Assembly (NCBI GenBank): GCA_965372795.1
Contig: CBDVDR010000012.1
Span: 1-64,000 of the forward strand
Direction: 5' to 3'
Source: an uncultured bacterium
GTDB lineage: Bacteria; Zixibacteria; MSB-5A5; GN15; FEB-12
DNA: 64,000 nucleotides
The notes beneath the pieces were generated by a model, which did not search any database, had not been told where the DNA came from, and saw only the letters and a list, made by a program, of their open reading frames with translations. The stretch's first letter is position 1. Every line of letters starts with the position of its first letter. The position numbers were made by a program, and so were the translations under genes. Of this stretch, positions 5,100 through 20,879 are shown piece after piece.

Positions 5100-5169
5100 G
5101 TCTCCACATTAGAATTATTATTGAGTATTATACAAACAATTAACGAAGATAATACGAAAAAAATATAAA

Positions 5170-6885
5170 TCAAGCCGTAGTAGGCTTTAATGTATGATTC
5201 GGATCCGATTCTTTGGGATTAGTAATTGGGTCAGAAGTATATTCCGGGATTTCTATTAAAAAAGTTGTGCCTTCGCTTAATTGAGAATCTACTGATAGAT
5301 TAAGTCTCAGAGCAGTGCAAATCCGATGCACAATGGACAATCCGAGTCCGGTGCCACCTTTTTTGGTGGAATAAAATGGTTTGTAAATATTCTTTAAATG
5401 GATCGCTTCAATTCCCGGTCCATTGTCCTGAACATATAATTCGATGAAATTGCTATTAAGATTCCTTGCAATTCTGAAAACAAGCTCACCTTCCTTAGTT
5501 TCCATCGCTTCACAAGCGTTCACAGCCAGATTCAAAAGTAGCTGACGGAATAAATCCTCATCTCCAACAACATAAGTTATTGAATGATCGGTCTCAAAAT
5601 TAATGTCTATTTTAGAGTGATATGAATTATGATGATACAGCAATTGGATTACATCTGTAACCACATGACATAGTTCAACTTTATTATAAATTCTCTTGTC
5701 AACTCGTGCGTAACTAAGAAAATCACTCAATATCCTGCTTAGCCGATGGGATTCTTTGACAATTAAATCCATAAGTTTTTTATTATCATCTTCCAGTTCA
5801 AGTTCATTTTTCAAAACTTCTACTGATCCGGATATTGAAGCTAAGGGATTTCTTATCTCATGAGCAATTGATGCTGAGAGTTCACCAACCGCCGCCAGAC
5901 GGTCAGCCGCTCGAACTTTGGCTTCCATATTTTTGGCAGAAGTTAAATTTGAAAATATTGTAATTACACCTCGTAAGGTTCCATTATCTTCGGTCAATAT
6001 TGAGGTTGACAGACCCAGAGGGATTCTAACATTTTCATGATTTATTATCTCTGTTTCTTTTCTGGGATATTGAACTAATTGCGTTGTCCCTTGAATTAAA
6101 AAATCAGCTAACTCAGGCATTCTCTCTGAAAAAACATCACTGCAATGCAGCCCTCGAACATCTTCACTTCTAAAACCAAGTATTTTTTCAGCCGCCCGGT
6201 TAAAATATATGATAAATCCTTTGGCATCAATCGTGAGCAAGCCGGAATTAAGATGATGCAGGATTTCATCAGTTTCAAGACGTGCTTTTCTAAGGGCTAT
6301 TGAAGAATCTTTGAGCTGCTTATCCTGCGTTTTAAGTTTCTCGGCCAGAAACCCCGAAATAAATGCAACCAGGTAAAAAATCAAAATATGAAGTAATATC
6401 GAATAAAACGCATTCTCTTTACCAACAAATACAGTTTGCAGCATATGAAGCGAAATAGCCGTATCGGCACTTCCCACCAACCCGAACCAAATTATAAAGG
6501 CATAAGCAATAGAGACAACTGAGGCTATTAAAAGCGTACCTACCATGCCATAAATTAAAGCCGCCGAAACAATAGCCAGAATAAACAAACCTGAAAATGG
6601 CGAGTTTATATTTCCGGTGGCATATATTATTCCCGATTCTATCAGGATTTCAAATACAAATTGTAAAGCAATTAAAGATGACGTGACATTTATAAGTTTT
6701 AGTTTTTTATCGAAGGTTATAAAGAGAGCAAACGCAAGGGTTAAAACAGAATAGATTACAAATTGAAGCCTGAGAAATAAAGGATACCCCATCCAGAAGA
6801 CTACGACCGAAAATAATATTATAAACGATGCGAATCTTAAAGGTATAAACCAACTGAATTGTTTTGATTTTTCAACTTGTTCCAT
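5170..6885 (-). CDS. pilS: Membrane PAS sensor histidine kinase, PilS-like
   Basis: N-terminal TM helices, PAS domain, AHEIRNPL H-box, N-box LNLAVNA, DNGPG, GTGLGL; lies directly after pilC. Confidence 0.8.
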   Translation of the reverse strand: MEQVEKSKQFSWFIPLRFASFIILFSVVVFWMGYPLFLRLQFVIYSVLTLAFALFITFDKKLKLINVTSSLIALQFVFEILIESGIIYATGNINSPFSGLFILAIVSAALIYGMVGTLLIASVVSIAYAFIIWFGLVGSADTAISLHMLQTVFVGKENAFYSILLHILIFYLVAFISGFLAEKLKTQDKQLKDSSIALRKARLETDEILHHLNSGLLTIDAKGFIIYFNRAAEKILGFRSEDVRGLHCSDVFSERMPELADFLIQGTTQLVQYPRKETEIINHENVRIPLGLSTSILTEDNGTLRGVITIFSNLTSAKNMEAKVRAADRLAAVGELSASIAHEIRNPLASISGSVEVLKNELELEDDNKKLMDLIVKESHRLSRILSDFLSYARVDKRIYNKVELCHVVTDVIQLLYHHNSYHSKIDINFETDHSITYVVGDEDLFRQLLLNLAVNACEAMETKEGELVFRIARNLNSNFIELYVQDNGPGIEAIHLKNIYKPFYSTKKGGTGLGLSIVHRICTALRLNLSVDSQLSEGTTFLIEIPEYTSDPITNPKESDPNHTLKPTTA

Positions 6886-6891
6886 ATTATA

Positions 6892-6913
6892 AACGGCGCC
6901 ATCGGGCGCCGTT
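6892..6913 (-). terminator. GC-rich hairpin between pilC and pilS
   Basis: AACGGCGCC-ATCG-GGCGCCGTT perfect 9-bp stem, 6 nt from the pilS start codon. Confidence 0.5.
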
Positions 6914-6944
6914 AATTATTTAAAATTTAGATTTTTATTTCTTT

Positions 6945-8141
6945 CTATATTTTGCCAATGATATCAAACATAGGTAAATACATCGCAACCAGAATACCAC
7001 CGATCACAATACCCATAAGTACAATAATTATCGGTTCGATAACCGACGTCAACGCAGTGACAGCCTCATCAACTTCTTCATCGTAGAAATCAGAAATTTT
7101 GTTAAGCATATCATCAAGACCACCGGTTTTTTCACCAACAGAAATCATCTGGGTCACCATCGGAGGAAATACTCCTGATTCCTTTAGAGGAGCAGTAATT
7201 GTATCACCCTCAGCAATTGACACCACTGATTTATTAATGGCATTGGCAATCACCAAATTTCCGGATGTTTTTGCAGTTATTTCCAAAGCTTCCAAAATTG
7301 AAACACCCGAGGAAAGCAAAGTACCCAGGGTACGGGTGAATCTTGCTACCGATGATTTTCTAACTAAATTTCCAAGAACCGGCAGTCTCAAAAGAATCTT
7401 ATCAAACATCAGCGCACCGGCATCTGTTTTCTTCCACCAAAAGAATAAAATCGACGAACCGATAGTTCCTCCAATTAAATAAAGAAAATTTGCCTGAAGG
7501 AAATTTGATATCTGTAAAACAACCTGAGTCGGTGCCGGCAAATCAGCATTCAATCCGCCAAACATCTTCGCAAAAACAGGAACGATAAAAGTCAACATAC
7601 TGATGGTTACCCCTGCTGCTACAATCATAATAACAACCGGATATATCATCGCACCTTTTACTTTTCTAACCAACTGGTCAGCCTTTTCACGATAGATCGC
7701 AAGACGGACTAATATACCATCAAGAGCTCCACCAACTTCACCGGCTTCCACCATGTTAGTATAAAGAGGATCAAATATTTTTGGATGGCGTGCCATGGCA
7801 TCAGAAAGAGTAGCACCACCCTGAACACCGTCCTGAACCTGTTTAATAATTTTAGCTAATTCTTTATTTTCAGTCTGCTGGGCAAGAATTTCAAGACACT
7901 GCACCATTGGTAATCCGGCGCCAATCATCGTTGCAAATTGGCGGGTAAATCGAGAGATTTCAACCTTTTTGATTCCGGTTCCAAATCTGATATCAAGTTC
8001 CGGTGCTTTCTTAGTAATCGAATTTACCATAATTCGATTTTGTCTAAGTACCCGTTCAATATCACTCTTTGTTTTTGCCTTCATCTGCCCTTGAACAGCA
8101 GCACCGGCAAGAGTCTTTCCTTTATATTCAAAAACTGGCAT
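6945..8141 (-). CDS. pilC: Type IV pilus platform protein PilC
   Basis: Two T2SSF domains: FTRQFATMIGAG, GEVGG.LD..L.RLA, GEKTG.LD.ML, AMYLPMF. Confidence 0.95.
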   Translation of the reverse strand: MPVFEYKGKTLAGAAVQGQMKAKTKSDIERVLRQNRIMVNSITKKAPELDIRFGTGIKKVEISRFTRQFATMIGAGLPMVQCLEILAQQTENKELAKIIKQVQDGVQGGATLSDAMARHPKIFDPLYTNMVEAGEVGGALDGILVRLAIYREKADQLVRKVKGAMIYPVVIMIVAAGVTISMLTFIVPVFAKMFGGLNADLPAPTQVVLQISNFLQANFLYLIGGTIGSSILFFWWKKTDAGALMFDKILLRLPVLGNLVRKSSVARFTRTLGTLLSSGVSILEALEITAKTSGNLVIANAINKSVVSIAEGDTITAPLKESGVFPPMVTQMISVGEKTGGLDDMLNKISDFYDEEVDEAVTALTSVIEPIIIVLMGIVIGGILVAMYLPMFDIIGKI

Positions 8142-8164
8142 TCAAATATCCTTTCATCCTTCTA

Positions 8165-9241
8165 TTAAGTAAATGCTGGAGATTTTTGCCGTGACATCAT
8201 CTCAGATAGTTCTTGGGTATTGTGACTGAAGTTCATAGCATCATTTATTGTTATTTTTCCAGCTATATATAGTTCTGATAATGATTGATTCATTGTTTTC
8301 ATACCAAATTTCTGTCCTGATTGAATCATTGAATACATCTGGTGAATCTTGTCATCACGAATCAGGGCTCTGATTGCCGGAGTAGCAATCATTATTTCCA
8401 GCGCAATTGTTCGACCGCCGCCAATTTTAGGTATCAGAGTCTGGGAAACGATTGCCTGTAAAGTAAATGATAATGAAACTCTGATCTGTTCCTGCTGATT
8501 TGTCGGAAACGAATCAACTATCCGGTTAATAGATTCTGCCGCTGAGTTAGTATGTAAAGTTGCGAAGGCAAGGTGACCGGTTTCAGAGATTGATAAAGCC
8601 GCTTCGATTGTTTCCAAATCACGCATCTCACCAACCAGTACCACATCAGGATCTTCACGTAAGGCATATTTCAAAGCGGTTGCAAAGGAGGTCGTGTCTG
8701 AATAAACTTCCCGTTGATTGATCAAAGCTTTCTGATGGCGATGAAGATACTCAATCGGATCTTCTACAGTGATAATATGAACCGGGCGTTCTTTATTTAT
8801 TTTATCAATGATCGCTGCCAGAGTCGTTGATTTACCCGAACCGGTTGGACCGGTAACCAATATTAAACCACGTGGTAAATTTGAAAAATCGGCACAAACC
8901 TTAGGCAGAGCCAATTGCTCAAAAGTCATAATTTCATAGGGAATTTGACGAAGCACGACCGCTACATTACCTCTCTGCATAAACAGATTGCACCGAAACC
9001 GACTCATCCGCTCAATACCAAAAGAGAGATCAAGTTCTGAGTTTTGCTCAAATTTCATTTTCTGTTTTTCATTTAACATTGAATAGGCGAGTTTTTTTAT
9101 CTGCTCACTGGTCAACATATCATGACTTGTTCGTTGGAGTTTTCCATCAACTCTTATCACAGGTGGGGCTCCAACAGTTAAATGAAGATCAGAAGCCCCT
9201 GCTTTCACCATCTCTTCTAATAATTCACGCAAACTTGCCAT
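8165..9241 (-). CDS. pilT: Type IV pilus retraction ATPase PilT
   Basis: ASDLHL, GPTGSGKST, TVEDPIE, LREDPD, ETGHL...TLHT and AIRALIR motifs. Confidence 0.95.
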   Translation of the reverse strand: MASLRELLEEMVKAGASDLHLTVGAPPVIRVDGKLQRTSHDMLTSEQIKKLAYSMLNEKQKMKFEQNSELDLSFGIERMSRFRCNLFMQRGNVAVVLRQIPYEIMTFEQLALPKVCADFSNLPRGLILVTGPTGSGKSTTLAAIIDKINKERPVHIITVEDPIEYLHRHQKALINQREVYSDTTSFATALKYALREDPDVVLVGEMRDLETIEAALSISETGHLAFATLHTNSAAESINRIVDSFPTNQQEQIRVSLSFTLQAIVSQTLIPKIGGGRTIALEIMIATPAIRALIRDDKIHQMYSMIQSGQKFGMKTMNQSLSELYIAGKITINDAMNFSHNTQELSEMMSRQKSPAFT

Positions 9242-9297
9242 TAATTACTCCATAACTCAAAATTACAGAAATTTAGATATAATAATTCTTTTTAATG

Positions 9298-9324
9298 TTA
9301 TCGGAATAAAACGACTATTCTTGA
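9298..9324 (-). promoter_or_regulatory. Sigma28-like promoter upstream of pilT
   Basis: Minus strand TCAAGAATAGTCGTTTTATTCCGATAA (TCAAG-15-CCGATAA). Confidence 0.55.
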
Positions 9325-9387
9325 CTCTGAAGGGCTTTTATTTCACCTCTCAAGGCTTTGAGAGACAAGGGTTTTACAACTGAAGGC

Positions 9388-11088
9388 TTAAGAACTTGTA
9401 GTGGTGGAAAAAACTTCATCAATACTTACAATACCATTTTTCATCTTCTCAACAGCACTCATCCGAAGACTGAACATACCTTCCTCGATTGCTTTTGCCA
9501 TAATTTCAAGATCAGAAGCTTTTCTTAAAATTAAAGACTCAATGGCAACGGTTATCGGCATGACTTCAAAAATACCGATACGCCCGGATTTTCCGGTATT
9601 ATTACATTGTGAGCAACCTTTACCCTGGAAAGCTCGTAAATTTTTCAATAATTCATCAGGGACATCCAAACCTTCAACTTGCTCTTTTGTCAAATTGATT
9701 TCCTCTTTACAGTGTTGACAAATTTTCTTCATCATACGCTGGGCAAGGATTAGTTTGGTTGATGAGGCAACCAGGTAATTTGGTATATTCATATCAATTA
9801 AACGGTTGATTGATGACGGAGCATCGTTGGTATGCAGCGTAGAAAAAACAAGGTGACCGGTTAAAGCTGCTCGAATCGCAATTTCGGCGGTTTCACCATC
9901 ACGAATTTCTCCAACCATGATAATATCAGGATCCTGACGTAAGAAGGATCTTAATGCCGATGCAAATGTTAATCCAATATCAGATTTAACCGCTACCTGA
10001 TTGATCCCCTCGAAGTTAAACTCGACCGGATCCTCAGCAGTCATAATATTCACATCGACCTGGTTTAAAGTTTTAAGACCTGAATACAATGTGGTAGTCT
10101 TACCTGATCCCGTAGGACCAGTTACCAGAATAATACCGTAAGGCAATTTAATTTTTTCTTCGAATTTCTCCAAATCCTGTTCACGGAATCCTAAAAGCTT
10201 TAGATCAACCTGCAAAGCTAATGGATCCAAAATACGCATAACGACTTTTTCACCAAAAATGGTAGGCAAAACCGACACACGAAGATCAACTGTTCTACCG
10301 GAAATTTTAATTTTAATACGTCCATCCTGAGGAAGCCGTCGTTCAGAAATATCCAGCTCAGCCATAATCTTTATTCGGGAAACGATTGCAGAGCGATACT
10401 TAAATGGCAGCGGAGCCATCTCCTCCAATTCACCATCAACACGATAACGAACTCTGATTTTCTTTTCATAAGTCTCAATATGAATATCAGAAGCGCCCCC
10501 GCGGATCGCATCTCCGATAATTGAATCAACAAGTTTAACCAGCGGCTTATCCTGAATTGCAGAGAGTAAATCCGATTCGCTCGGACCTTCATCTTCTTGT
10601 GAGACAACCTCTAAATCTGGATCATCTTCAAGACCTCTGACAATTTCAGACAAACCGGAGCTGTCCCTATAATACGTTTCAATTGCTTTATCAATAGAAG
10701 CTTCGGGAGAAATTACCGGTTGTATGGTTAAACCGGTAATAAATTTCAAGGCGTCGAGAACATAAATATTATTAGGATCACTTAAGGCAACCAACAATGT
10801 TTTATTTAATTTGGAGACTGCAATAACTTTGAATTTGCGGGCAATATCTAAAGGAATTAATTTGATAACTTCAGGATTAAGTTCAACATCGCCTAATCTT
10901 AAGGCTCCGATTTTCAAATGTTGACCGATAAATTTGGCAATGTCATCCTCGGACTCGATGGCACCTATCTGCACAAGTACCGTTTCGAGTTTTTCATTTT
11001 TATCTTTGGTAACTGCGAGAGCTTTCTCAAGCTGTTCTTGAGTAATTTTTCCCGCTTTTACCAGTACACTTCCGAGTTCGGCTGACAT
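9388..11088 (-). CDS. pilB: Type IV pilus extension ATPase PilB
   Basis: GSPII_N region, ASDIHIE, RLPQDGR, GPTGSGKTT, LRQDPD and zinc motif CQHC...CSQC. Confidence 0.95.
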   Translation of the reverse strand: MSAELGSVLVKAGKITQEQLEKALAVTKDKNEKLETVLVQIGAIESEDDIAKFIGQHLKIGALRLGDVELNPEVIKLIPLDIARKFKVIAVSKLNKTLLVALSDPNNIYVLDALKFITGLTIQPVISPEASIDKAIETYYRDSSGLSEIVRGLEDDPDLEVVSQEDEGPSESDLLSAIQDKPLVKLVDSIIGDAIRGGASDIHIETYEKKIRVRYRVDGELEEMAPLPFKYRSAIVSRIKIMAELDISERRLPQDGRIKIKISGRTVDLRVSVLPTIFGEKVVMRILDPLALQVDLKLLGFREQDLEKFEEKIKLPYGIILVTGPTGSGKTTTLYSGLKTLNQVDVNIMTAEDPVEFNFEGINQVAVKSDIGLTFASALRSFLRQDPDIIMVGEIRDGETAEIAIRAALTGHLVFSTLHTNDAPSSINRLIDMNIPNYLVASSTKLILAQRMMKKICQHCKEEINLTKEQVEGLDVPDELLKNLRAFQGKGCSQCNNTGKSGRIGIFEVMPITVAIESLILRKASDLEIMAKAIEEGMFSLRMSAVEKMKNGIVSIDEVFSTTTSS

Positions 11089-11140
11089 TATTTACTATCC
11101 AAATTTATAAAATTCAAAAATATTTTATGGAACAGGGCTA

Positions 11141-11632
11141 TTAATCCTGAAATATATCATCCATTTTGTCTGATGCCATATCAGCAAATTCATTGCTAAT
11201 AGCCGGCTTATCATTTGACATCGCCTTCTTCTCTACCTGTTGAAAAACCTTGTTCAACTCCTGAGATGTTTCCTTGGCATAAAGACGAACCATCCCGATT
11301 GTAGTTCTGTCATCAAAAATTACAACTAAGATTGACCTGCCACCAACAATTGACATGTGGATATGGTCTTTCTTACCCTGATGAAACAGAACTGAAAACT
11401 CTTCCTCACCTACCAAACGTGCTATCTCATGAGTCGATGCAAATGAGCCGGCAAGTAAAGCTGCTAAAGCAGTGGTATCAAGTGAATGTGTAAATCCCTG
11501 GCGGGTTATTAAATGACCATCCTTATCAACCAGCAAAGCACACTTAGCCTCACACCCCTTGATCATCTTAGAGATGAATGCTTCAATTTGAGCAATCTCT
11601 TCTTCGTATATAATCAAACTATCGTTTGACAT
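11141..11632 (-). CDS. mglB: MglB roadblock/LC7 GTPase-activating protein
   Basis: LVDKDG.LI...ALAALLAGSFAS...FSVLFHQG..DHIH...VIFD.RTTIGMVRL, as in Myxococcus MglB; acidic C-terminal helix; GAGGAGG RBS. Confidence 0.9.
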   Translation of the reverse strand: MSNDSLIIYEEEIAQIEAFISKMIKGCEAKCALLVDKDGHLITRQGFTHSLDTTALAALLAGSFASTHEIARLVGEEEFSVLFHQGKKDHIHMSIVGGRSILVVIFDDRTTIGMVRLYAKETSQELNKVFQQVEKKAMSNDKPAISNEFADMASDKMDDIFQD

Positions 11633-11651
11633 TAAAAAACCTCCTCAGCCG

Positions 11652-12659
11652 TTATTTTATTCCAAATAATCGTTTAAAAAATCCACGTTTCTTGGTCTCA
11701 CGCTTTCGTTTCAATGAAGGCGCCATGATAGGACGGTTTAATCCCCCACTATCATCTCCGGAAACTATATTATTATTAGTTACTGTTTTTTCTAAAGTTG
11801 CATCAGCAACCCCTTCTGTTTGTTGGGGTGCATAATTTGATGGAGAAATTTTCTTCTCCTGTGTCTCAGCTGCCGCACTTCCGGGATAAGGACGATACGT
11901 GACATCCGAAACCGGGGCGGGTCGAGGTGCTTCCGTCTGAGAAGCAACAACGGTATTAGATTGTGAAGCTGATGGCGATGTGGAATAATCGGTTTGAGCA
12001 GCCGGCTGATTTTCCGGTTGAGATTGGGTAGTGGGGATTTGAGCTGATGCTTCCAGAACCCGTGTTTGTTTTACATTTGTACTTTTAGCTTTATCCAAAA
12101 CAAGCTTGATAATCAATTTTAGAGTATCAAAAACTCCGTTGCCAATTGAAGCCGAAGCTTCAAAAATAGGCAGCCCTCTTGGATTAAGCCTGCGATTCAT
12201 TTCTTCAACTGACAAAATGCCCGGTAAATCGCGTTTATTATACTGAAGAACAATTGGCATATCGTTTATATCGTAGCCATATTCTTTCAGATTTTCTTCA
12301 AGATTCGATAGCGATTCAATATTTTCATCCATCTTGTCAGGCTGACTATCAGCTACAAAACAGACACCGTCAACACCTCGCAATACAAGCTTCCTGGTAG
12401 CGTTATAATATACCTGTCCGGGAACAGTATAAAGCTGAAATTTGGCCGCCAATCCATTGATATTGCCAATATTTATTGGCAGAAAATCAAAAAACAGAGT
12501 TCGATCTGCTTCGGTTGCCAAAGAGATAAGCTTCCCGCGAGTAGTCTGAGGAACTTTTGAATGGATATACTGAAGATTGGTGGTCTTCCCCGACAGACCA
12601 GGACCATAATAAACAATCTTACAGCAAACTTCTCTCGATGAATAATTTATTGATACCAT
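11652..12659 (-). CDS. mglA: MglA small Ras-like GTPase with a ~140-aa C-terminal extension
   Basis: INYSSRE..CKIVYYGPGLSGKTTN, DRTLFFDF, TVPGQ, NKRD and EASA motifs, followed by a Q/S/T/P/A-rich tail. Confidence 0.93.
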   Translation of the reverse strand: MVSINYSSREVCCKIVYYGPGLSGKTTNLQYIHSKVPQTTRGKLISLATEADRTLFFDFLPINIGNINGLAAKFQLYTVPGQVYYNATRKLVLRGVDGVCFVADSQPDKMDENIESLSNLEENLKEYGYDINDMPIVLQYNKRDLPGILSVEEMNRRLNPRGLPIFEASASIGNGVFDTLKLIIKLVLDKAKSTNVKQTRVLEASAQIPTTQSQPENQPAAQTDYSTSPSASQSNTVVASQTEAPRPAPVSDVTYRPYPGSAAAETQEKKISPSNYAPQQTEGVADATLEKTVTNNNIVSGDDSGGLNRPIMAPSLKRKRETKKRGFFKRLFGIK

Positions 12660-12682
12660 TCTTTACTCTCACCTTTAATTAA

Positions 12683-13024
12683 TTAACTGGATAATTTAAG
12701 ATTGTTTAATGCATTTTTAATTTCTAAACGAATCAATCCAACGTTTACATTCTGTTCCGTTGTCACAACCAAAATGCCGACTCCGGCATCTGAGAAAAAT
12801 AGTTTTGCATTCTCAGCTTCAATTGTAACCTGTTTCAACGGTGTTGCATCAAGCCTATCCAATGATTTCCGGATATTTGATGTGATGGACGCTGCTAAGG
12901 CGCCAACGGTTTCATCCTCAAATGATTCCTGAAGATCTGCGGCGATAACAATACCGTCTTTTCCTACAACCATCGAACCGGTAATCCCGGTTGTTTTGTT
13001 CAACTCATTTAATACATTATACAT
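12683..13024 (-). CDS. Standalone roadblock/LC7 protein
   Basis: GITGSMVVGKDGIVIA...VGALAA...NVGLIRLE. Probable start is ATG 13024 (RBS GGAG), overlapping the upstream stop. Confidence 0.88.
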   Translation of the reverse strand: MYNVLNELNKTTGITGSMVVGKDGIVIAADLQESFEDETVGALAASITSNIRKSLDRLDATPLKQVTIEAENAKLFFSDAGVGILVVTTEQNVNVGLIRLEIKNALNNLKLSS

Positions 13025-13991
13025 ATGACTTCTCCGATTGTATGACCAGATCATGATCATAGCGTTCGTTAATATACTTTTTAATTATTTCGACACCCTG
13101 TTTAACTCTAATATTTATGAGATCATCTGTCTTTTGCTCTGCAACAACCATCAAATAGAACGAATCTTCACGAACCAGAATAATTCTTTTTTGACCGCTG
13201 TAAAAATCAATATGTTTCGGGGTTGGAAGACCTGCTTTTTGCATTACCGATCCGTTAGACTCGAATAATACCAATGCCAGAGGAGCCCAATCTTCCGCTT
13301 CATAATCTTGAGTAACATAGTTTGAAAGAAGCAACCCTTCATTATCGACAACAGCTACTAATTCAACCGTGGCACTTTCACCAATATATTTCGTTGCTTT
13401 ATCAAATCCGTTTAATTCACCTGTAACTGTTTCTTTATTATCATATTTTTTAGCCGAAACAGAAGAAGATGCAGGAGCTTGTGTTACTATATTAATGGGC
13501 TGAGTCTGTTTCTTTTCTTTGGATAAAGCTATATTAGTCATCCCGGAATTTACATTTGAAGCATCTTGTTCAGCAGGAGGTGTTAATTTTCTTTTTTGTT
13601 CTGGAATGATTTCCATAATTAACGGTTTCAAAACAAATGGTGCTGATAAAATGTGCAGGAAAATCCCGGGGATATAACTTGTTATTCCCATGGTAAGTGA
13701 TATTCCGAAATTCATTTTATACATTAATGTAATCAAGGCACCAAAGAAAACTCCAAGACTTATCCTGTATATAAAGCATAGTCCGACAACTTGAAAGAGT
13801 TTCACCAATGTAGCTTTTCGATTAAAGAAAAATACTACAAGACCATAAAAGACCAGCTCTATTAAAGCATTCGCCAGAGATGCTGTTCCCAGCGAGGTTC
13901 CAAATCGTTCTGGAAAAGCAACCATTGGGACAATCATCAACAATAATGATAAAAGCAATATCTGACGGCCATTTCGACCTGATAATTTCAT
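13017..13991 (-). CDS. Membrane-anchored roadblock/LC7 protein
   Basis: About 4 hydrophobic N-terminal segments, a low-complexity linker, then a C-terminal roadblock (VAVVDNEGLLLS...AEDWAPLA). Confidence 0.75.
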   Translation of the reverse strand: MKLSGRNGRQILLLSLLLMIVPMVAFPERFGTSLGTASLANALIELVFYGLVVFFFNRKATLVKLFQVVGLCFIYRISLGVFFGALITLMYKMNFGISLTMGITSYIPGIFLHILSAPFVLKPLIMEIIPEQKRKLTPPAEQDASNVNSGMTNIALSKEKKQTQPINIVTQAPASSSVSAKKYDNKETVTGELNGFDKATKYIGESATVELVAVVDNEGLLLSNYVTQDYEAEDWAPLALVLFESNGSVMQKAGLPTPKHIDFYSGQKRIILVREDSFYLMVVAEQKTDDLINIRVKQGVEIIKKYINERYDHDLVIQSEKSYV

Positions 13992-14002
13992 TTTTGTACC
14001 CT

Positions 14003-14860
14003 CTATTTATTTCCAAATAGGTTTTCAATTTTCATTCTAAGCGATCCAAGATTAGTCCCTGATTGAGCGATAAACAAATAAATCCCGGGATCAGTTACAA
14101 CCTGATAAAAATTCAAGTTCTCAGTTTCAATCAGGATAGTTGAAATATTTCCAAAAGAGTTCTGAATCATTTCAGCATTAAGATTTTTGGAAATCTCAAC
14201 CATATTTGCTCCGCATACTTCTGAATCCATCTGGAGGACCCATTCCTTTTCTACAATCAGACCTTCATTATTTAAAAACAAAGCTCCATCGATACCTTTA
14301 AAAGTTATAGCATCTTTTAAAATATCCAACGGTTCCTTAATTACTGGCTCTGATTTTCTCTTTTCTACTTGTAAAACAGCAGGCTCTTTAACAACTGGTT
14401 TCATTTTTTCTTGCGAAGCCGCATGAATAAGGGTCTGCTCTATCGGTATTTTCTCGGCTATATCCAATAATTTTTTAACCTGATCATTAGTCGGATCACT
14501 CTGGTGAAGCTTCCTTAAAAGCCTGATCGCCTTGGAGAATTCCCCTTTATATATATGAATTTCAGCCATCAATAATTCTACGGCTCTGGTCTTACCGTCA
14601 ATTTCAGCCGATTTCTGAACCTCTATCTCTGCCCAGTCATAAAGTCCCCGATCAAGATTTATTTTCGCCATGACTAAATGAGCAGAACCGTATTTTAGAT
14701 GAACTTTCAATCCATTACGGCATACTTTAAACGCTCTATCCAATTCCCCTTTTTTTCTGTATGCTTCTGCTAAAGCTGCAAAAATCTGAGAATTCGGATC
14801 AGCGTCTAATATTTTCTGACACTTATTGATTCTGTCGTCTATTTCCAAAGTACTAATCAT
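14003..14860 (-). CDS. TPR-roadblock fusion protein
   Basis: DPNSQIFAALAEAYRKKG plus further TPR-like repeats; C-terminal GIDGALFLNNEGLIV...NLGSLRM roadblock. Confidence 0.8.
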   Translation of the reverse strand: MISTLEIDDRINKCQKILDADPNSQIFAALAEAYRKKGELDRAFKVCRNGLKVHLKYGSAHLVMAKINLDRGLYDWAEIEVQKSAEIDGKTRAVELLMAEIHIYKGEFSKAIRLLRKLHQSDPTNDQVKKLLDIAEKIPIEQTLIHAASQEKMKPVVKEPAVLQVEKRKSEPVIKEPLDILKDAITFKGIDGALFLNNEGLIVEKEWVLQMDSEVCGANMVEISKNLNAEMIQNSFGNISTILIETENLNFYQVVTDPGIYLFIAQSGTNLGSLRMKIENLFGNK

Positions 14861-14925
14861 AATCTTCCCTACAAACTGTTGAGGGATACCCTATTAAACA
14901 ACCAAGTTATTTTGGTCTGAAGATA

Positions 14926-14954
14926 AATATATATCCCTCAAAAAGTTATGTCAA
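14926..14954 (-). promoter_or_regulatory. Internal sigma70-type promoter upstream of the TPR-roadblock gene
   Basis: Minus strand TTGACA-17 nt-TATATT. Confidence 0.55.
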
Positions 14955-14965
14955 CATCAAAGAAA

Positions 14966-15328
14966 CTAACTTAGTATTTTCTTTGTCTCAAAAATCCCAT
15001 ATAAAAACAGTCCTGCTGTTAGTACCATCATTGCCGGCACTACAAAGATTGGAAGACTAAGGACTTCAAAGGCTACACATAAATAGCCGATTTGGCTCAA
15101 AGCTAAGATCACAAAACCTAAAAGGAATAATTGCCAGCTTTTGCTCATACTGCCACCTCGAACAAGATCATAAACCCTGACGCAACCGAAGATACATCCG
15201 CAAGATAACAGCAAAATAAAGGCATTTAAAAATACCGGAGGGCTTGTAATAACTGCAAAATTAGCCGCTTGTGCGTTAACAGCGGTAACAATTGTCATTG
15301 CCATAAAAGTAATAATCATTCTTTTCAT
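14966..15328 (-). CDS. Small hypothetical membrane protein
   Basis: Signal-peptide-like N-terminus (AVNAQA) and 3 TM segments; starts 4 nt after the DUF4388 gene stop. Confidence 0.75.
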   Translation of the reverse strand: MKRMIITFMAMTIVTAVNAQAANFAVITSPPVFLNAFILLLSCGCIFGCVRVYDLVRGGSMSKSWQLFLLGFVILALSQIGYLCVAFEVLSLPIFVVPAMMVLTAGLFLYGIFETKKILS

Positions 15329-15332
15329 ATAA

Positions 15333-16535
15333 TTAACCTCTAATCATTTTCACGACTTTATCAGCCTTTTTAACGGTTCGATAGAAACTATCTTCAATAT
15401 TATATCGTTTAACAATTTCTCTGCGTATAGCCAATGGTTGAGCAATCTCTTTTTTTACACTAATGGCAACCTCTTTGAAGGTGCCTACCCCGGCAAGCTG
15501 AAAAATAAACTCAAGCTGTTCAGAGAGCATAATATCAAGATCAGCCATCAATTTACAGAATCTGATATTGGCGGGGATATTTTTTATCACCGGTAGAAAT
15601 TTTTCGAATTGCGGAGCCAGTTCTGATGATGGATCGACTCCGGAAAAGAAAACCATTATACCGTTTCGATACTGAGATGCAAACGAAGCAAATCGGCTGT
15701 TTTCTTCACCAAGCAGTTCATCGACAATAGATCTAATTCGGAAAAAACATCCGTTGTATAGATCAAAAATGATTCTTAATACAACTTCTTCTTCATCTTC
15801 CTGATCAGCCGATTGTTTTTCTTTTTTCCCGACTACTTCAATTAGCTTATTTAAAATTAAGCGATAAATACACCGATAAGTTACAAATTCACCCATAGGC
15901 GATTTTGAAATTAATTCCGGCATCGTATGCTCACCGTCAATTAAGGCTAAAATTTTAAACTCATCTAAAGTAAGTACTATTTCATCAGATTTTCGTTTAG
16001 GATTTTTGTTAACTGCAAACAAAACATTATCAGGAGGGAGGACCTTTTGAATTTCAATCCATTCATCTATACGGCGAGTTCCTTCCATGATAACACTCAT
16101 GGTATTAAGTTCAATCAGGAATGGTGCATTTTTTGGTTTTTCATTTTCATAAAATACAAAATCCCCTTGAGGCCATGAAAAAAGATTATAAACCGTCTCT
16201 TCAATCTGAAGCTTCAGACATTCGGCTATCTCAGACTTCTCGAAGATATTCATATCAACCAAGGTCGTACCAAGTTGTCGTCCGGTTTGTTTATGGAGAG
16301 TAATAGCCCGATCAAGATCAGTTTTAGAAATTTTCCCTCGCTTTAATAGCATATTCCCAAGCAAGTCTTCATTTGAGTTAACTGATGATGCATAAATAAT
16401 ATTTCCGTCTTTAAAAAAGACTTCTTTCTGTCTGCTGGATGTTTTCACTTCCAACAGTCCAATTTTCTTTCCTGTTGCTAACAACTGCAATATATCAGAG
16501 AAAGAAACTGTTTTAAGATTTCCTGAAAGACCCAT
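15333..16535 (-). CDS. DUF4388 (PATAN-like) domain protein
   Basis: LSGNL...SFSDILQLL...KK.G.L...F.DG.I.YA, LFSW..G.F.F and MEG.RR.DEW; internal MshEN-like helical repeat. Confidence 0.85.
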   Translation of the reverse strand: MGLSGNLKTVSFSDILQLLATGKKIGLLEVKTSSRQKEVFFKDGNIIYASSVNSNEDLLGNMLLKRGKISKTDLDRAITLHKQTGRQLGTTLVDMNIFEKSEIAECLKLQIEETVYNLFSWPQGDFVFYENEKPKNAPFLIELNTMSVIMEGTRRIDEWIEIQKVLPPDNVLFAVNKNPKRKSDEIVLTLDEFKILALIDGEHTMPELISKSPMGEFVTYRCIYRLILNKLIEVVGKKEKQSADQEDEEEVVLRIIFDLYNGCFFRIRSIVDELLGEENSRFASFASQYRNGIMVFFSGVDPSSELAPQFEKFLPVIKNIPANIRFCKLMADLDIMLSEQLEFIFQLAGVGTFKEVAISVKKEIAQPLAIRREIVKRYNIEDSFYRTVKKADKVVKMIRG

Positions 16536-16602
16536 CTTTGCTTATATCTCCATACAAAAATGTATATTTGACGCCTATTGGCGTTACTTTTCATTTATTT
16601 AT

Positions 16603-16630
16603 TTATCGGAATTTAACTGACTATTCTTTA
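16603..16630 (-). promoter_or_regulatory. Sigma28-like promoter upstream of the DUF4388/Mgl operon
   Basis: Minus strand TAAAGAATAGTCAGTTAAATTCCGATAA (TAAAG-16-CCGATAA). Confidence 0.55.
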
Positions 16631-16674
16631 TTAGAAAATGAGATTAAAGGCATTATTTGTTAATCGTTTAAGAA

Positions 16675-18936
16675 CTAAGGCTTTAGGTCAATCTGATAGA
16701 AACCTCTGGCTTTAAGATTATTTAGTTTCAATATCTGCTGTTTATTAATTACAGAACTGTTTTTTTCAATTTTATGCATAATCTGCTGTTCAATATTTGA
16801 ACAGATAACCATATCAAAATAACCGAGAACTGACATTAGGTTGTCATAGTGTGACATCTTAACTTTGGAGCTGATACACAAAATACCCCTCTCAAAATCC
16901 CGAAGATCTTTGCACTCACTAATATTCTCAACAAACGAAAGATTAATTGAATCTGTCTTAAAATTATAAATTCTATCAGCTTGCAGATTAGCTGAGCCAG
17001 TTAATTTTATTATTGGCTCCACCGTAATTTCATTAATTAAGTCATTGCCGGAAAGCTGCTTAATGTCATAGAACATATTTAATAGAGGTTCATTTACAAA
17101 CATTGTATCACCCTGATGAGTCGCCATGAGATTCATTAAATCTTCAGCCGCTTTATATTGTGATGATAATACATAGACATTATTGATCTTTTCAATACTA
17201 TAATGAATAAGCATTGGGCGTATAATTACTTCATCAATTGGATAATCTTTTTTATACAACCCGTTTACAATCATTGTAGAACTTCTGGAAACCGGATCAA
17301 TATGAAGCAAACCCATCCCGCCCGGTAGATTAAATGCAATCAGGCGATTAGATTCTGATTCGAAATATGGCGAAATTATTTTATAGCCAAAACCAATATT
17401 TAGGATCACTAAAAGACTTATAACGGTAAGTCGTCTAATTTTTGTCTTATATAATGACATAACAATTAAAACCGTAATAATAAAATATAAGATGACATAA
17501 CTAACCGAAAACTCCCCTGTCTCCCATATCATTCGTTCATCACCATTAAAGAATATCAATAATTTTATGATAAAACTCATGAGAACATCAAGGAGGCTCC
17601 CGACAAATTGTCCTAACAAGGGATGAATCAAAGCCGCCACAAGTAAAACCAGCACGCCTACTAAGGCTATAGAAACCAACGGAACAATAATAAGGTTGGC
17701 AATAACTGAGACCAGCGGAATTTTTTGGAAATAAAACGCAATAACAGGCGCTGAACAAACCTGGGCAACCAGTGAAATAATCAGGGGCAGAAATAAATAC
17801 TTGTAGATTTTATAATTATAATATTTTTCAAATTTACGATGAATTATAGGAACAAGAAAAATCAACCCCCAGGCTGTTATAAATGAAAGCTGGAACCCAA
17901 TATGATAAAACTGTCCCGGATCAAACAGTAAAATAATTGAAGCCGTCAGAGCTATTATATTATTCAAATTATATCGACGTCCGACCAATCCGGCAATAAT
18001 CACTAAAGTTGCCATAACCGATGCGCGAACAACCGAGGGCTCACCATATGAAAGAAAAGTGAATATAAAAACTATAGCCATTAAGATTAAACTGCGGATA
18101 TTTCTTTTTAAAGAAAAAGGGCGCATCACAAATATAAAAAACAAAATAACCAAAGCAACATTAGAACCGGATACGGCCAAGAGATGCAATGTCCCCGTAT
18201 TGCGAAAATATCGATAAATATCAACAGGAATATTTCTTGTCTCACCGATTAAAAAACCAGAGGCTAATGAGGCTGACATCGGTGAAAGATTATCTTCAAA
18301 AACATTTGTAATCTCTGCTCTCAACTTATCAATTAATGACAACAATTTAATTGATGAAGACCGACCGATACGAACATCAATCAAAGTTGGCAGATAGACA
18401 ACTCCGAATATTCCTTTAAGATTTAAAAATCGCTGGTAATTAAATCCGATATTTTTTTCTATCTCACGAACAGGATAAATCACGCCAAAAAATTCGACCT
18501 TATCCCCTCTTTGAAGGGTGGTTGTGGTATCATATACTTTTAATAATATATCACCCTTGACTGAAACTGAAGTTTCTCCCACAAGTGAATCAACTCGAAT
18601 AGGAATTTCCGTTCGGTTGGCTTTTAATAAGGGCCAGTTAGAAACTTCTCCAAAAATATGATAGCGCTGATTTTCTTCAACAATTTGCTTCAAACTGTTA
18701 GGACCGGTATCATAAAATTGAACGGCAAAATTCAAAGCGTTGAAAAATAAAATAGCCAGTGAAAAACCGATCAGACCTAATTGTATTCTGTTTTTTTTGA
18801 ATAATACATAACCGCCGATCATGCTTATCAATGCAAACAAAAACAATAACAGCGATGATATCCGTGTAAGATCGGCTAATAGAATCCCTGCGATAATCAC
18901 CAGCAGCAGGAAGATGCCGGGATATTTGCGAAACAT
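16675..18936 (-). CDS. comEC: DNA uptake channel ComEC/Rec2
   Basis: DUF4131/OB region, HLLAVSG.N, PSVVRA..M and GFQLSF; degenerate C-terminal MBL-like region. Confidence 0.9.
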   Translation of the reverse strand: MFRKYPGIFLLLVIIAGILLADLTRISSLLLFLFALISMIGGYVLFKKNRIQLGLIGFSLAILFFNALNFAVQFYDTGPNSLKQIVEENQRYHIFGEVSNWPLLKANRTEIPIRVDSLVGETSVSVKGDILLKVYDTTTTLQRGDKVEFFGVIYPVREIEKNIGFNYQRFLNLKGIFGVVYLPTLIDVRIGRSSSIKLLSLIDKLRAEITNVFEDNLSPMSASLASGFLIGETRNIPVDIYRYFRNTGTLHLLAVSGSNVALVILFFIFVMRPFSLKRNIRSLILMAIVFIFTFLSYGEPSVVRASVMATLVIIAGLVGRRYNLNNIIALTASIILLFDPGQFYHIGFQLSFITAWGLIFLVPIIHRKFEKYYNYKIYKYLFLPLIISLVAQVCSAPVIAFYFQKIPLVSVIANLIIVPLVSIALVGVLVLLVAALIHPLLGQFVGSLLDVLMSFIIKLLIFFNGDERMIWETGEFSVSYVILYFIITVLIVMSLYKTKIRRLTVISLLVILNIGFGYKIISPYFESESNRLIAFNLPGGMGLLHIDPVSRSSTMIVNGLYKKDYPIDEVIIRPMLIHYSIEKINNVYVLSSQYKAAEDLMNLMATHQGDTMFVNEPLLNMFYDIKQLSGNDLINEITVEPIIKLTGSANLQADRIYNFKTDSINLSFVENISECKDLRDFERGILCISSKVKMSHYDNLMSVLGYFDMVICSNIEQQIMHKIEKNSSVINKQQILKLNNLKARGFYQIDLKP

Positions 18937-18945
18937 AATTGGTTA

Positions 18946-20511
18946 TTATCCCCTTCTCATAAATAACCTTTTAATAAGGCGCACCTCTTTTATTCTAAAC
19001 ATTGAACATAAAATCAAGTAAATAATTATTGCTTCGACTGCCGGAATAACCAGATTTATCAATCTCTGGACAGATTCCGGTGCAACTGTTGGTATAAATG
19101 GAATCATCCGAGCCAGATAAACGGCAATAATAGCCGCCACTAATACTCTAAAAGTATGCAACCCTATTTTACCAAATGGAATAGATATCCCTTTGCGTGG
19201 CAGGAAATAAAGTAATAAGCCGCAATTCAAAATTCCCGCAATAGAAGTTGCTGCTGCCAACCCGGCAAAGTTGAGTATTTTTATCATTGGATAATAAAGA
19301 GCTAAATTAACCACTACTGTAATAATTGAAAATTTCATCGGCATTTTTGAATCATCAAAAGCATAATAAAACGGAACAATGATTCTCACTGTTGCAAAGC
19401 CGATTAATCCATAAGAATAATGAAGCAGGGCTAAAGATGTATTTCCGGCATCAGCGACTGAAAAGGCTCCCCACTGAAAAATGAGACTTACTATCTCAGA
19501 ACCCAAAATTGCCAATAAAACTGCCGATGGAACAAGAATAAACATATTGAGATTAAATGACTCAACAAATGTATCGGTTAACGCCTGATCATCTTTTTTA
19601 CTGACCAACTCGGCAACTTTTGGCAAAGCCACGGTTCCTAAGGCTACCGCAAAAACCCCCATCGGGAAATGCATCAAACGATATGAGTAATTTAAATAAG
19701 AAATTGAACCTTCAATTAGAAAAGATGCTAACAGCGTGCTGACCAGAACATTTACCCGACTGGCTGACAATCCGATAATCATTGGGATTACCAGATTAAT
19801 TACTTTTTTAAAATCAGGATTCAGAAAGTTAAAATTGAACCGAAACCGGTAGCCGATCTTTCGAAGTGACGGTATCTGAATAAATAACTGCCCCAAGCCG
19901 CCTATCACCACCCCATAAGCTAAAGCATAAATTGGCTGATCAAGATAATCATAGGTTAACACAACGGTGAGAATCATCCCCAGATTGAACATCGCCGATG
20001 ATAAAGCCGGAATTCCAAAGCGACCAAATGAATTTAAAATGCCCATTACTAAAGCAGCCAGAGAAACAATTAGTAAGTAAATAAACATTATTCGCGTCAG
20101 CGAAACAGTCAGATTAAATTTTTCCGGGTCGGCGGTAAATCCCTTGGCTGTTAAATAGATAATTGCCGGAGCAGCAATAATGCCCAGGATTACAATCGTC
20201 CCGACCACCACAAATATAAAACTGATTATCGTTGAGGCGAGTTGGAAAGCCTTGGTTTCCTCATCGGAAACCAGCTTTTTCTTAAAAACAGCAATAAAAG
20301 CCGCCGATAACGCCCCCTCGGCAAACATATCTCTCAATAAATTAGGTACTCTGAAAGCAGTAACAAAGGCATCAGTAAGCATCCCGGCACCGAAATAATA
20401 AGCCATAACCTGTTCCCGGACAAGCCCTAAGACTCTTGAAAAAGCTGTTGCCGAAGAAACTTTTGATGCTGATCGAATAAGTGTTTCTTGTTTATTTTTG
20501 CTTATTGACAA
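18946..20511 (-). CDS. murJ: Lipid II flippase MurJ
   Basis: SRVLGLVRE, DAF..AFRVPNLLRDMFAEGA and many TM segments; TTG start uncertain. Confidence 0.93.
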   Translation of the reverse strand: MSISKNKQETLIRSASKVSSATAFSRVLGLVREQVMAYYFGAGMLTDAFVTAFRVPNLLRDMFAEGALSAAFIAVFKKKLVSDEETKAFQLASTIISFIFVVVGTIVILGIIAAPAIIYLTAKGFTADPEKFNLTVSLTRIMFIYLLIVSLAALVMGILNSFGRFGIPALSSAMFNLGMILTVVLTYDYLDQPIYALAYGVVIGGLGQLFIQIPSLRKIGYRFRFNFNFLNPDFKKVINLVIPMIIGLSASRVNVLVSTLLASFLIEGSISYLNYSYRLMHFPMGVFAVALGTVALPKVAELVSKKDDQALTDTFVESFNLNMFILVPSAVLLAILGSEIVSLIFQWGAFSVADAGNTSLALLHYSYGLIGFATVRIIVPFYYAFDDSKMPMKFSIITVVVNLALYYPMIKILNFAGLAAATSIAGILNCGLLLYFLPRKGISIPFGKIGLHTFRVLVAAIIAVYLARMIPFIPTVAPESVQRLINLVIPAVEAIIIYLILCSMFRIKEVRLIKRLFMRRG

Positions 20512-20533
20512 AATGATTCTGCCGATTTATATT
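20505..20533 (+). promoter_or_regulatory. Sigma70 promoter of rpsT
   Basis: TTGACA-17 nt-TATATT; the -35 overlaps the predicted murJ start. Confidence 0.6.
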
Positions 20534-20573
20534 GAATGTTACTGTTTAACAAATTATTTGAAAGGATGAACTG

Positions 20574-20828: not shown

Positions 20829-20852
20829 TTTCATCTTTGCTGAAAAATTAAT

Positions 20853-20879
20853 GCCTCCGGTTATCCGGGGGCTTTTTTT
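20853..20879 (+). terminator. rpsT terminator
   Basis: GCCTCCGG-TTAT-CCGGGGGC followed by T7. Confidence 0.8.

Follow-up and report, generated by a model that had tools for sequence, protein, structure and literature searches.

A conserved gene array in Zixibacteria places MglA, MglB and three further roadblock proteins beside the type IVa pilus motor genes

The array and its conservation

The DNA analysed here (the window) is a stretch of 64,000 nucleotides (nt) of contig CBDVDR010000012.1, from an uncultured bacterium of the Zixibacteria. It contains an array of eight co-directional genes on the minus strand, running from 16535 to 9388. In this order, they encode a PATAN/DUF4388 protein, a small membrane protein (TM120), a tetratricopeptide repeat (TPR) protein fused to a Roadblock domain, a second Roadblock protein with four predicted transmembrane (TM) helices, a free Roadblock protein, the small GTPase MglA, its partner MglB, and PilB, the extension ATPase of the type IVa pilus. 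The genes pilT, pilC and pilS follow on the same strand. We propose, with a probability of about 0.6, that the array encodes a membrane-held MglA/MglB module, present throughout the lineage (Candidatus Zixiibacteriota), which would regulate the type IVa pilus motor. The features of the array, from its 5′ end, are:

15333..16535, minus strand: PATAN/DUF4388 protein, 400 residues (Pfam PF14332, 117.2 bits)
16206..16361, minus strand: alpha-clip insert of the PATAN domain, residues 59-110 (NF053729, 46.5 bits; Foldseek; VIA)
14966..15328, minus strand: TM120, small membrane protein, 120 residues (signal-peptide-like N-terminus, three hydrophobic segments)
14926..14954, minus strand: promoter-like site in the 105-nt gap 5′ of the TPR-Roadblock gene (TTGACA-17-TATATT, 11 of 12 consensus matches)
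14003..14860, minus strand: TPR-Roadblock fusion, 285 residues (TPR families of Pfam; C-terminal Robl_LC7 match of 16.8 bits; hhalign; PDB profile matches)
14441-14860, minus strand: TPR repeats of this fusion, residues ~1-140, followed by a variable linker and then the Roadblock domain
14006-14341, minus strand: Roadblock domain of this fusion, residues ~174-285 (hhalign, 98.2%)
13017..13991, minus strand: 4-TM-Roadblock fusion, 324 residues (hydrophobic segments; AlphaFold2 (AF2) model; Foldseek)
13608-13991, minus strand: four hydrophobic helices of the TM fusion, residues 1-128 (segments 8-26, 38-56, 63-81 and 103-121)
13020-13415, minus strand: Roadblock domain of the TM fusion, residues 193-324 (AF2 fold, Foldseek)
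12683..13024, minus strand: free single-domain Roadblock, 113 residues from Met13 (Robl_LC7, 54.0 bits; the longest open reading frame (ORF), of 125 residues, begins at 13060)
11652..12659, minus strand: MglA with a C-terminal tail, 335 residues, G domain in residues 1-193 (phmmer against M. xanthus MglA; Pfam Arf/Ras)
11655..12080, minus strand: MglA tail, residues 194-335 (about 130 low-complexity residues, a polybasic stretch, and the C-terminal RGFFKRLFGIK at 11655-11687)
11141..11632, minus strand: MglB, 163 residues (Robl_LC7, 45.5 bits; phmmer against M. xanthus MglB)
9388..11088, minus strand: PilB, extension ATPase of the type IVa pilus, MshEN motif at the N-terminus (TIGR02538, 691.5 bits)

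The gap between the PATAN gene and the TM120 gene is 4 nt, and that between the TM120 and TPR-Roadblock genes is 105 nt. The TPR-Roadblock and TM-Roadblock genes are 11 nt apart, and the latter overlaps the free Roadblock gene by 8 nt when Met13 is taken as its start. The overlap would be 44 nt with the longest Roadblock ORF; the shorter one is accepted here because Met13 is invariant in 19 of 19 orthologues. The remaining gaps are 23 nt (Roadblock to mglA), 19 nt (mglA to mglB), 52 nt (mglB to pilB), 146 nt (pilB to pilT), 23 nt (pilT to pilC), and 59 nt (pilC to pilS). In a consensus scan, the promoter-like TTGACA-17-TATATT is the top minus-strand match within 5000-21000, and the same kind of scan gives no strong terminator-like site in the gaps of the run.

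The array is kept across the phylum and is not a one-off. Two sets of loci were compared, one of 20 loci, each of twenty kb, drawn from four families within the same order (order loci), and one of ten loci from ten other families (deep-family loci). The order murJ, comEC, PATAN, TM120, TPR-Roadblock, TM-Roadblock, Roadblock, mglA, mglB, pilB, pilT, pilC, pilS is found in all 20 order loci. In one of them (L028) MglA is detected only by profile, and in another (L018, genome G016) pilB, pilT and pilC, downstream of mglB, are each split into several short ORFs, which may reflect assembly frameshifts or decay. All ten deep-family loci have the run from comEC to pilB, and in nine of them it is followed by pilT-pilC-pilS. 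The mglB gene is adjacent to pilB in 30 of the 30 fetched genome loci. Among a further 123 genome and metagenome contigs, 121 have at least two module genes, which are contiguous and colinear in all 121, and 41 have all 13 genes; since the TM or the TPR fusion served to retrieve these contigs, the presence of the two fusions in them is by construction.

The initial annotation of this DNA had described a tightly spaced, co-oriented run of these genes, with one 8-nt overlap, that leads straight into pilB-pilT-pilC-pilS. Each of these points holds, the overlap with the Met13 start, and the ORFs lie at the positions it had assigned to them, all on the minus strand. The conservation of gene order on which its reading depended is also found, in the 30 fetched genome loci and the 121 colinear contigs.

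Of 41 relatives, 40 have the TM-Roadblock protein itself, and across the phylum it occurs in 276 of 285 Zixibacteriota genomes, 195 of the 198 good-quality genomes, and 128 of 130 genera; it is absent from three genomes of one family (f6). Outside the phylum, clusters of the ESM Atlas named Roadblock/LC7/TPR, of similar length, are found in Gemmatimonadota and WOR-3 with scores of 0.95-0.97, and in Fibrobacter succinogenes a 313-residue MglA is followed by MglB (Wuichet and Sogaard-Andersen, PMC4316618, Table S2). These two observations suggest that parts of the module may be shared across phyla related to the Fibrobacterota-Chlorobiota-Bacteroidota (FCB) group. A metagenome scan with the TPR fusion gave only relatives at 41-61% identity.

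MglA, MglB and the three further roadblock proteins

The match between the window MglA and M. xanthus MglA (phmmer E value 1.7e-79) aligns residues 3-192 with residues 3-192 without a gap. The sequence contains the P-loop GPGLSGKT, Arg53, T78-VPGQ82, and NKRD; Arg53 is the intrinsic arginine, Thr78 replaces the Asp of G3, and Gln82 is the catalytic glutamine of MglA (PMC3000849). MglB matches M. xanthus MglB over residues 5-162, including the C-terminal part, with an E value of 1.5e-41, and its mean column identity among orthologues is 81%. With the Thermus equivalog NF052242 of NCBIfam it reaches 90 bits, under the cut-off of 200. The mglB gene lies directly downstream of mglA and three more roadblock genes lie upstream, and an MglB homologue encoded within four genes is a criterion for the group 1 type (PMC4316618). 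By its motifs and the mglB gene within four genes, the GTPase is classed with the MglA family, group 1 type. As judged by sequence, the GTPase and its GTPase-activating protein (GAP) are orthologous to the MglA-MglB pairs of Myxococcus and Thermus. The genome of this organism (3.35 Mb, 98.65% complete) has a single MglA, the one in this cluster.

There is one striking difference between the window MglA and the single-domain proteins of about 190-200 residues that are the norm of the family. Its tail, rich in Ala, Ser, Thr, Pro and Gln, makes it roughly 140 residues longer than the solved MglA proteins. As far as the composition shows, the tail would not contain a second fold. Orthologues within the order have 328 to 415 residues, with tails that vary in both length and sequence, and the best 120 database relatives all have 320-398 residues and all belong to a Zixibacteria-like set. 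The end of the tail is conserved, being a basic stretch followed by G/S-F-F/W-K/R-K/R-L-F-G-x-K/R in 19 of 19 order orthologues. The MglA of 11 of 11 further loci, of which ten represent deep families, ends in a polybasic run and then a stretch rich in Phe, Trp and Leu.

The C-terminal RGFFKRLFGIK is close to the tag KGFLKRLFGG from the membrane-targeting sequence (MTS) of E. coli MinD (PMC5471200). On the Fauchere-Pliska scale the maximum helical moment of the tail, 0.62, is found at residues 325-334, compared with 0.55 for the MinD tag. The end of MglA is a putative MinD-like amphipathic membrane-targeting motif. As in the MinD MTS, it is short, basic and putatively amphipathic and lies at the extreme C-terminus; unlike that of MinD, it hangs on a Ras-like GTPase through a long disordered linker. 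MinD itself, sought in the same genome for this comparison, gave no match over the family cut-off. The tail and its end motif had been missed in the initial annotation. A second conserved motif, P-x-M-A-P/E-S/P-L/M-R/K, is found at 11688-11720 (residues ~314-324), 5′ of the polybasic run, and may be a binding motif or a helix start.

The four roadblock domains of the array are real, one of them located behind four predicted TM helices and another behind TPR repeats. Against the Pfam family Robl_LC7 (PF03259, gathering cut-off 23 bits), the 125-residue ORF of the free Roadblock and the 163-residue MglB score 54.0 and 45.5 bits, respectively. The C-terminal parts of the two fusions, scanned alone, stay below this cut-off, at 16.8 bits (TPR) and 17.8 bits (TM). 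Robl_LC7 is nevertheless the top Pfam match for both parts, covering positions 9-89 and 12-89 of the 91 in the profile. The genome has four Robl_LC7 matches in all, every one inside this cluster.

The free Roadblock has a mean column identity of 69%. Its best PDB profile match is an Asgard roadblock (7yh1_D, E value 1e-13), followed by MglB (6h5b, 0.0057), and the match to MglC (7ct3_A) reaches only 0.58. The profile of the TPR fusion, built from 21 orthologues, aligns with the free-Roadblock family at an hhalign probability of 98.2% (E value 3.6e-14), and its PDB profile matches include 7yh1_D (9.6e-8) and LAMTOR2 (1.6e-4).

For the TM fusion, the roadblock fold is settled by the predicted structure. 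Residues 195-322 of the AF2 model have the order alpha-beta-beta-alpha-beta-beta-beta-alpha, with per-residue confidence (pLDDT) values of 81-91. The best Foldseek match of the model is M. xanthus MglB (6izw_C), with an E value of 5.2e-8, a TMt of 0.80, and a root mean square deviation (rmsd) of 2.0 over 116 columns; LAMTOR2 and other roadblocks come next. In a PDB profile search, nine of the 11 matches at E ≤ 10 are dynein roadblock chains, the best at 0.0031. The whole 324-residue protein matches no Pfam or NCBIfam family at E ≤ 0.01. The linker between its two parts (residues 132-191) is modelled as disordered and varies among the aligned sequences. A basic N-terminus and an even number of helices would place the roadblock domain on the cytoplasmic side. 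The four roadblocks named in the initial annotation are thus confirmed, although the Robl_LC7 profile it had pointed to recognizes only two of them above the cut-off, the TPR fusion being identified by hhalign and the TM fusion by AF2 and Foldseek.

A complex of the three extra roadblock domains was predicted from the free Roadblock (residues 13-125), the TPR-fusion domain (170-285), and the TM-fusion domain (190-324, the scored partner), each with its own alignment. The ipSAE scores are 0.65, 0.61 and 0.61, compared with 0.01 for the best of three controls; at least 82% of the contacts agree between runs, and the pLDDT of the partner is at least 82. In the calibration of this procedure, 116 of 157 solved complexes reach the mark and two of 215 mismatched pairs do so, a guide that is only rough here because own alignments and three chains were used. 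The predicted contacts link residues 216-224, 233-241 and 310-316 of the TM fusion to two homologous N-x-G-x-x-R elements, at residues 106-119 in the free Roadblock and 270-276 in the TPR fusion. The model supports, and does not show, a hetero-interaction of the three domains. For the hetero-oligomer suggested in the initial annotation, contacts among the three domains are predicted (ipSAE 0.61, control 0.01), and the assembly itself stands as a structural model.

The three proteins could instead be separate homodimeric adaptors of the MglC type, which would link MglB rather than MglA to different landmarks or partners, with no scaffold among them and with the membrane anchoring of one roadblock as a detail of the lineage. 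MglC of M. xanthus is indeed a roadblock paralogue and acts together with MglB and RomR (PMC4719450, PMC7949163, PMC10329633), but the free Roadblock of the array resembles it only at an E value of 0.58. Three is an odd number for heterodimers, and the predicted interface departs from that of the canonical roadblock dimer; on the other hand, the three-chain fold scores 0.61 against 0.01 for the controls, in a manner dependent on the TPR-fusion domain. The TM anchor is missing in two of the ten deep families, whereas the three genes themselves are adjacent (gaps of 11 and -8 nt) in every locus seen. We regard separate adaptors as unlikely.

A direct action of the trio on the hexameric ATPases PilB and PilT, as a general NTPase platform with MglA/MglB as a parallel input, appears highly improbable. 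The mglA gene comes immediately after the trio, and the solved roadblock-NTPase complexes among the top matches all contain a small GTPase (MglA-MglB and Rag-Ragulator). This reading draws on the location of the trio genes between the PATAN gene and pilB and on the description of roadblock proteins as a superfamily with an implied role in regulating NTPases (Koonin and Aravind 2000, cited in PMC4316618).

The PATAN protein, the pilus genes and their neighbours

The PATAN domain spans residues 4-159 of its protein and covers positions 1-121 of the 122 in the Pfam profile (cut-off 25 bits). The mean column identity among 21 orthologues is 72%. In the AF2 model (mean pLDDT 80.9), helices at residues 58-119 are inserted between the strands of the domain, which is followed by a winged-helix-like middle part and a helical C-terminal domain. 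With VIA, residues 160-243 have winged-helix-type matches at Z < 7 only and the C-terminal helices have no clear match; the matches to the middle and C-terminal parts reach a Z score of 8.4 at best, with phage baseplate helices, and kinship was not accepted. Foldseek with the whole model finds no match at E ≤ 0.001.

The insert (residues 59-110) scores 46.5 bits with NF053729, a model of the MshE-related motif for cyclic diguanosine monophosphate (c-di-GMP), over a cut-off of 38. Its local Foldseek match to the c-di-GMP-bound GSPII-B domain of T. thermophilus PilF (8pdk_B) has an rmsd of 1.0 over 52 columns, with 33% identity and a probability of 1.00, the E value of the whole model being 0.58. 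In VIA, the insert matches MshE in complex with c-di-GMP (5htl_B) with a middling Z score of 6.6 and an rmsd of 2.4 over 60 aligned residues. The insert thus resembles the c-di-GMP-binding MshEN/GSPII domains in its predicted structure, and binding of c-di-GMP is putative.

The same MshEN-type motif, NF053729, is shared with residues 5-54 of PilB (43.4 bits). The assignment of PilB itself comes from TIGR02538 (691.5 bits against a cut-off of 675.65) and from the Pfam families T2SSE and MshEN. In Synechocystis, PixE's PATAN domain has been reported to bind the N-terminal half of PilB1 and also PilC's N-terminal domain (10.1101/2021.06.11.447907). Because a PATAN domain binds PilB and PilC in cyanobacteria, the PATAN protein of the array is by analogy a more direct candidate for the link to the motor, which the initial annotation had missed. 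Three further PATAN genes are found elsewhere in the same genome (G000:C5:74545-75015, G000:C5:38120-38431 and G000:C14:47611-47916), two of them within ORFs of about 708 residues.

The gene for TM120 is located at the same position in all 20 order loci and all ten deep-family loci. The three hydrophobic segments of this protein on the Kyte-Doolittle scale are residues 32-50, 67-85 and 94-112, and it matches no Pfam or NCBIfam family at E ≤ 0.01.

The remaining pilus genes and the upstream neighbours of the array are:

8165..9241, minus strand: PilT, retraction ATPase (TIGR01420, 497.5 bits against a cut-off of 319.1; Pfam T2SSE)
6945..8141, minus strand: PilC, platform protein (Pfam T2SSF, 230 bits)
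5170..6885, minus strand: PilS-type sensor kinase (6TM_PilS, PAS, HisKA, HATPase_c)
16675..20511, minus strand: murJ and comEC, upstream neighbours (Pfam MurJ, Competence/DUF4131)

Two NCBIfam equivalogs of PilC, NF052606 (476) and another (421), stay under their cut-off of 700. The gene after pilS (3336-5099) was considered as PilR and ruled out, as it encodes a protein with a peptidyl-prolyl isomerase (PPIase) domain. On another contig of the genome (locus L090, G000:C17:56000-72000), pilM, pilN and pilO are followed by the gene for a 497-residue protein and that for a secretin. A GspH/N-methyl pilin-like gene lies upstream of them, and a Big_1/invasin-like protein of 801 residues is encoded downstream. 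Judging by gene content, the pilus gene set is complete, with the motor genes in the window and pilM, pilN, pilO, the secretin and the pilin-like gene on the other contig.

In 30 of 30 loci (20 of 20 order loci, ten of ten deep-family loci), the gene directly upstream of PATAN is comEC, which hints at a possible role of the pili in DNA uptake. The murJ gene precedes comEC in 27 of 30 loci (20 of 20 and seven of ten); it is unseen in L082, L086 and L087, where only about 2.1 kb upstream of comEC is available and the region may end early.

The conservation of murJ and comEC upstream, which equals that of pilB downstream, also bears on another explanation, in which the module does not act on the pilus motor and is a mere neighbour of pilBTC, setting instead polarity, division, envelope growth, gliding or ComEC-dependent DNA transport. 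MglA is known to control gliding in M. xanthus and predation in Bdellovibrio as well, and one deep family lacks pilT, pilC and pilS after pilB. The promoter-like site together with the 146-nt gap could split the run into several transcripts; mglB and pilB, however, are only 52 nt apart and adjacent in all 30 fetched genome loci. Moreover, the binding of PATAN domains to PilB and PilC in cyanobacteria and the MshEN-type motif common to PilB and the PATAN protein both argue for the motor, and this explanation seems to us improbable.

Two further loci of the window are of note. A 921-residue M28 peptidase is encoded at 21001-23766; it has an fn3-like part and, at its C-terminus, a dockerin type I domain, and such a domain is, to our knowledge, unusual outside cellulosome producers. 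At 26174-29030, the gene for an outer-membrane barrel of the alginate-export type adjoins that for a multi-haem cytochrome with an MtrC/MtrF-like domain, and the two may be an extracellular electron transfer pair.

Proposed function and relation to known systems

In the proposed module, MglA would attach reversibly to the inner membrane through its polybasic stretch and the MinD-like amphipathic C-terminal motif. This anchor would terminate a flexible tail of about 130-290 residues, a layout like that of the hypervariable region and anchor of eukaryotic Ras and Rho proteins. The three extra roadblocks (4-TM-anchored, TPR-fused and free) would form a hetero-oligomeric platform at the membrane. 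By capturing MglA or MglB, the platform would decide where and when MglA-GTP persists, with MglB switching MglA off. The TPR arm may relay the state of MglA to PilB, in the way that TPR proteins act with MglA-GTP in Myxococcus, and the PATAN protein may relay it as well, its MshEN-like insert possibly adding a c-di-GMP input. The output would be the extension of pili at a particular site, serving either twitching or DNA uptake; comEC lies directly upstream.

The relay to PilB is proposed because the PATAN domain of Synechocystis binds PilB and PilC and because MglA and the TPR protein SgmX stimulate pili in M. xanthus (PMC7519303). The idea that the trio would position MglA or MglB, or couple them to PilB, comes from synteny and analogy.

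Several observations weigh against this proposal. In hhalign, the TM fusion gives weak probabilities of 36% with the free Roadblock and 26% with the TPR fusion, and with MglB it shows no link (0.3%). The interface predicted for the three domains is not that of a textbook roadblock dimer; on the TM fusion it consists of alpha3, the beginning of alpha2 and the beta1-beta2 hairpin, which face the N-x-G-x-x-R elements of the two other domains. Replacing the TPR-fusion domain brought the score down to 0.01, even with the free Roadblock still present; the model therefore sets the TM fusion on a pair of the other two. Solved roadblock dimers may also have guided the fold, so that its passing would partly reflect likeness to them. 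On the Eisenberg scale, the observed maximum moment of the MglA tail is 0.48, compared with a mean of 0.61 for shuffled tails, and 96% of the shuffles equal or exceed the observed value; shuffling is a poor control here because it spreads the few hydrophobic residues. In the PATAN insert, the first position of each MshEN-like half-motif differs from the RLG start of the motif in MshE.

Conservation also has its exceptions. In one deep-family locus (L080:1-7713, genome G207 of family f13), pilT, pilC and pilS are not found within the 7.7 kb after pilB. The TM anchor is not universal, a point that the initial annotation had missed; in L082 and L086, two of the ten deep families, the TM-Roadblock orthologue consists of the soluble domain alone. 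It has 136-169 codons from stop to stop in these loci (L082:6911-7417 of family f17 and L086:6980-7387 of family f16), and the rest of the array is unchanged.

The polarity module of M. xanthus consists of MglA, MglB, MglC, RomR/RomX and RomY, with SgmX/FrzS/SopA leading to PilB. It shares with the array orthologues of MglA (including Arg53, Thr78 and Gln82) and of MglB (C-terminal part included), extra roadblock paralogues, a TPR protein, and an expected output at PilB. There are clear differences, however. The zixibacterial genes are located in one array with pilBTC, with mglA before mglB, whereas mglA lies away from its partners in both M. xanthus and Bdellovibrio (PMC4316618). The array has three extra roadblocks, one with four TM helices and one fused to TPR, compared with one in M. 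xanthus, and its MglA has the long tail and the putative membrane-targeting motif. The initial annotation had seen no RomR-type regulator in the window, which was covered here with Pfam; no search aimed at RomR, RomX, RomY or SgmX was made.

The array is an elaboration of the known neighbourhood of PATAN, MglB and MglA genes (Makarova 2006; Wuichet and Sogaard-Andersen 2014, PMC4316618), in which PATAN likewise adjoins group 1 mglA. Group 1 and group 5 mglA genes are sometimes located next to PATAN genes, and some systems have two coupled MglB homologues, as in the order PATAN, MglA, MglB, MglB of Chloroflexus; Chloroherpeton has a PATAN:MglB fusion (PMC4316618). The 2014 survey excluded sequences of more than 240 residues and scored MglA, MglB and PATAN within four genes. 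It predates the Zixibacteria genomes, and the TM- and TPR-fused roadblocks, the tail motif, and the link to pilBTC are not reported in its available text (PMC4316618). As far as searches of the open-access literature go, the fused roadblocks, the conserved membrane-targeting end of MglA, and the phylum-wide union with pilBTC are new; these searches found no description of the array and no paper with MglA or pilus terms that mentions Zixibacteria.

Two other bacterial systems share parts of this organization. The PatA-type (PATAN-REC) regulators of PilB1 and PilC in cyanobacteria have a PATAN domain with an alpha-clip insert and are encoded with type IV pilus control genes. In comparison, the PATAN protein of the array has no receiver domain, carries a winged-helix-like part and a helical C-terminal domain instead, and is combined with MglA/MglB. 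In the actinobacterial conservon (CvnA-D), a membrane protein, a roadblock protein, and a GTPase of the MglA family are encoded together. The membrane partner of the conservon is a histidine kinase, however, and its GTPase belongs to group 2. The conservon is not linked to pili and lacks both a PATAN protein and roadblocks fused to TPR or TM parts.

The eukaryotic Ragulator-Rag system (LAMTOR1-5, RagA/C), to which the initial annotation had compared the array, also assembles several roadblock domains on a membrane in the service of a small GTPase, and LAMTOR2 is among the best sequence and fold matches of the array roadblocks. In Ragulator, a lipidated subunit of the LAMTOR1 type wraps two roadblock heterodimers, and the client GTPase has a roadblock domain (PMC5680233). 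The array, in contrast, has no LAMTOR1-like lipidated wrapper, its anchor being an integral 4-TM domain on a roadblock chain, and its GTPase, MglA, has no roadblock domain of its own. The comparison therefore stands as an analogy of layout and fails as membership, and nothing indicates that the two assemblies share a common origin.

A more tentative and rather doubtful extension of the proposed module is that it is a bacterial counterpart of the membrane placement of small GTPases in eukaryotes. In such a system, a Ras-like GTPase with a tail like a hypervariable region and a basic membrane anchor would be captured by an integral-membrane platform of several roadblocks. The platform would be its exchange factor or its retention site, in the role that Ragulator has for Rag, and it would read c-di-GMP through the PATAN protein and fire the pilus motor. 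If this is true, the logic of a GTPase with a roadblock platform at the membrane would be older, or more easily evolved, than thought, and the counterpart system would work without a landmark of the RomR type.

The route of MglA to its membrane site and to PilB is an open point in Myxococcus too, whose genome has the genes concerned at scattered positions. An entire uncultured phylum has a candidate pathway in one array (sensor-like PATAN protein, membrane proteins, three roadblocks, GTPase, GAP and motor), which gives a short list of pairs. The tail motif of MglA and the TM-anchored roadblock are simple, testable cases of how a bacterial Ras-like switch may be tethered to the membrane. The array would also bear on the origin of roadblock platforms for small GTPases, including Ragulator and the longin/roadblock guanine nucleotide exchange factors.

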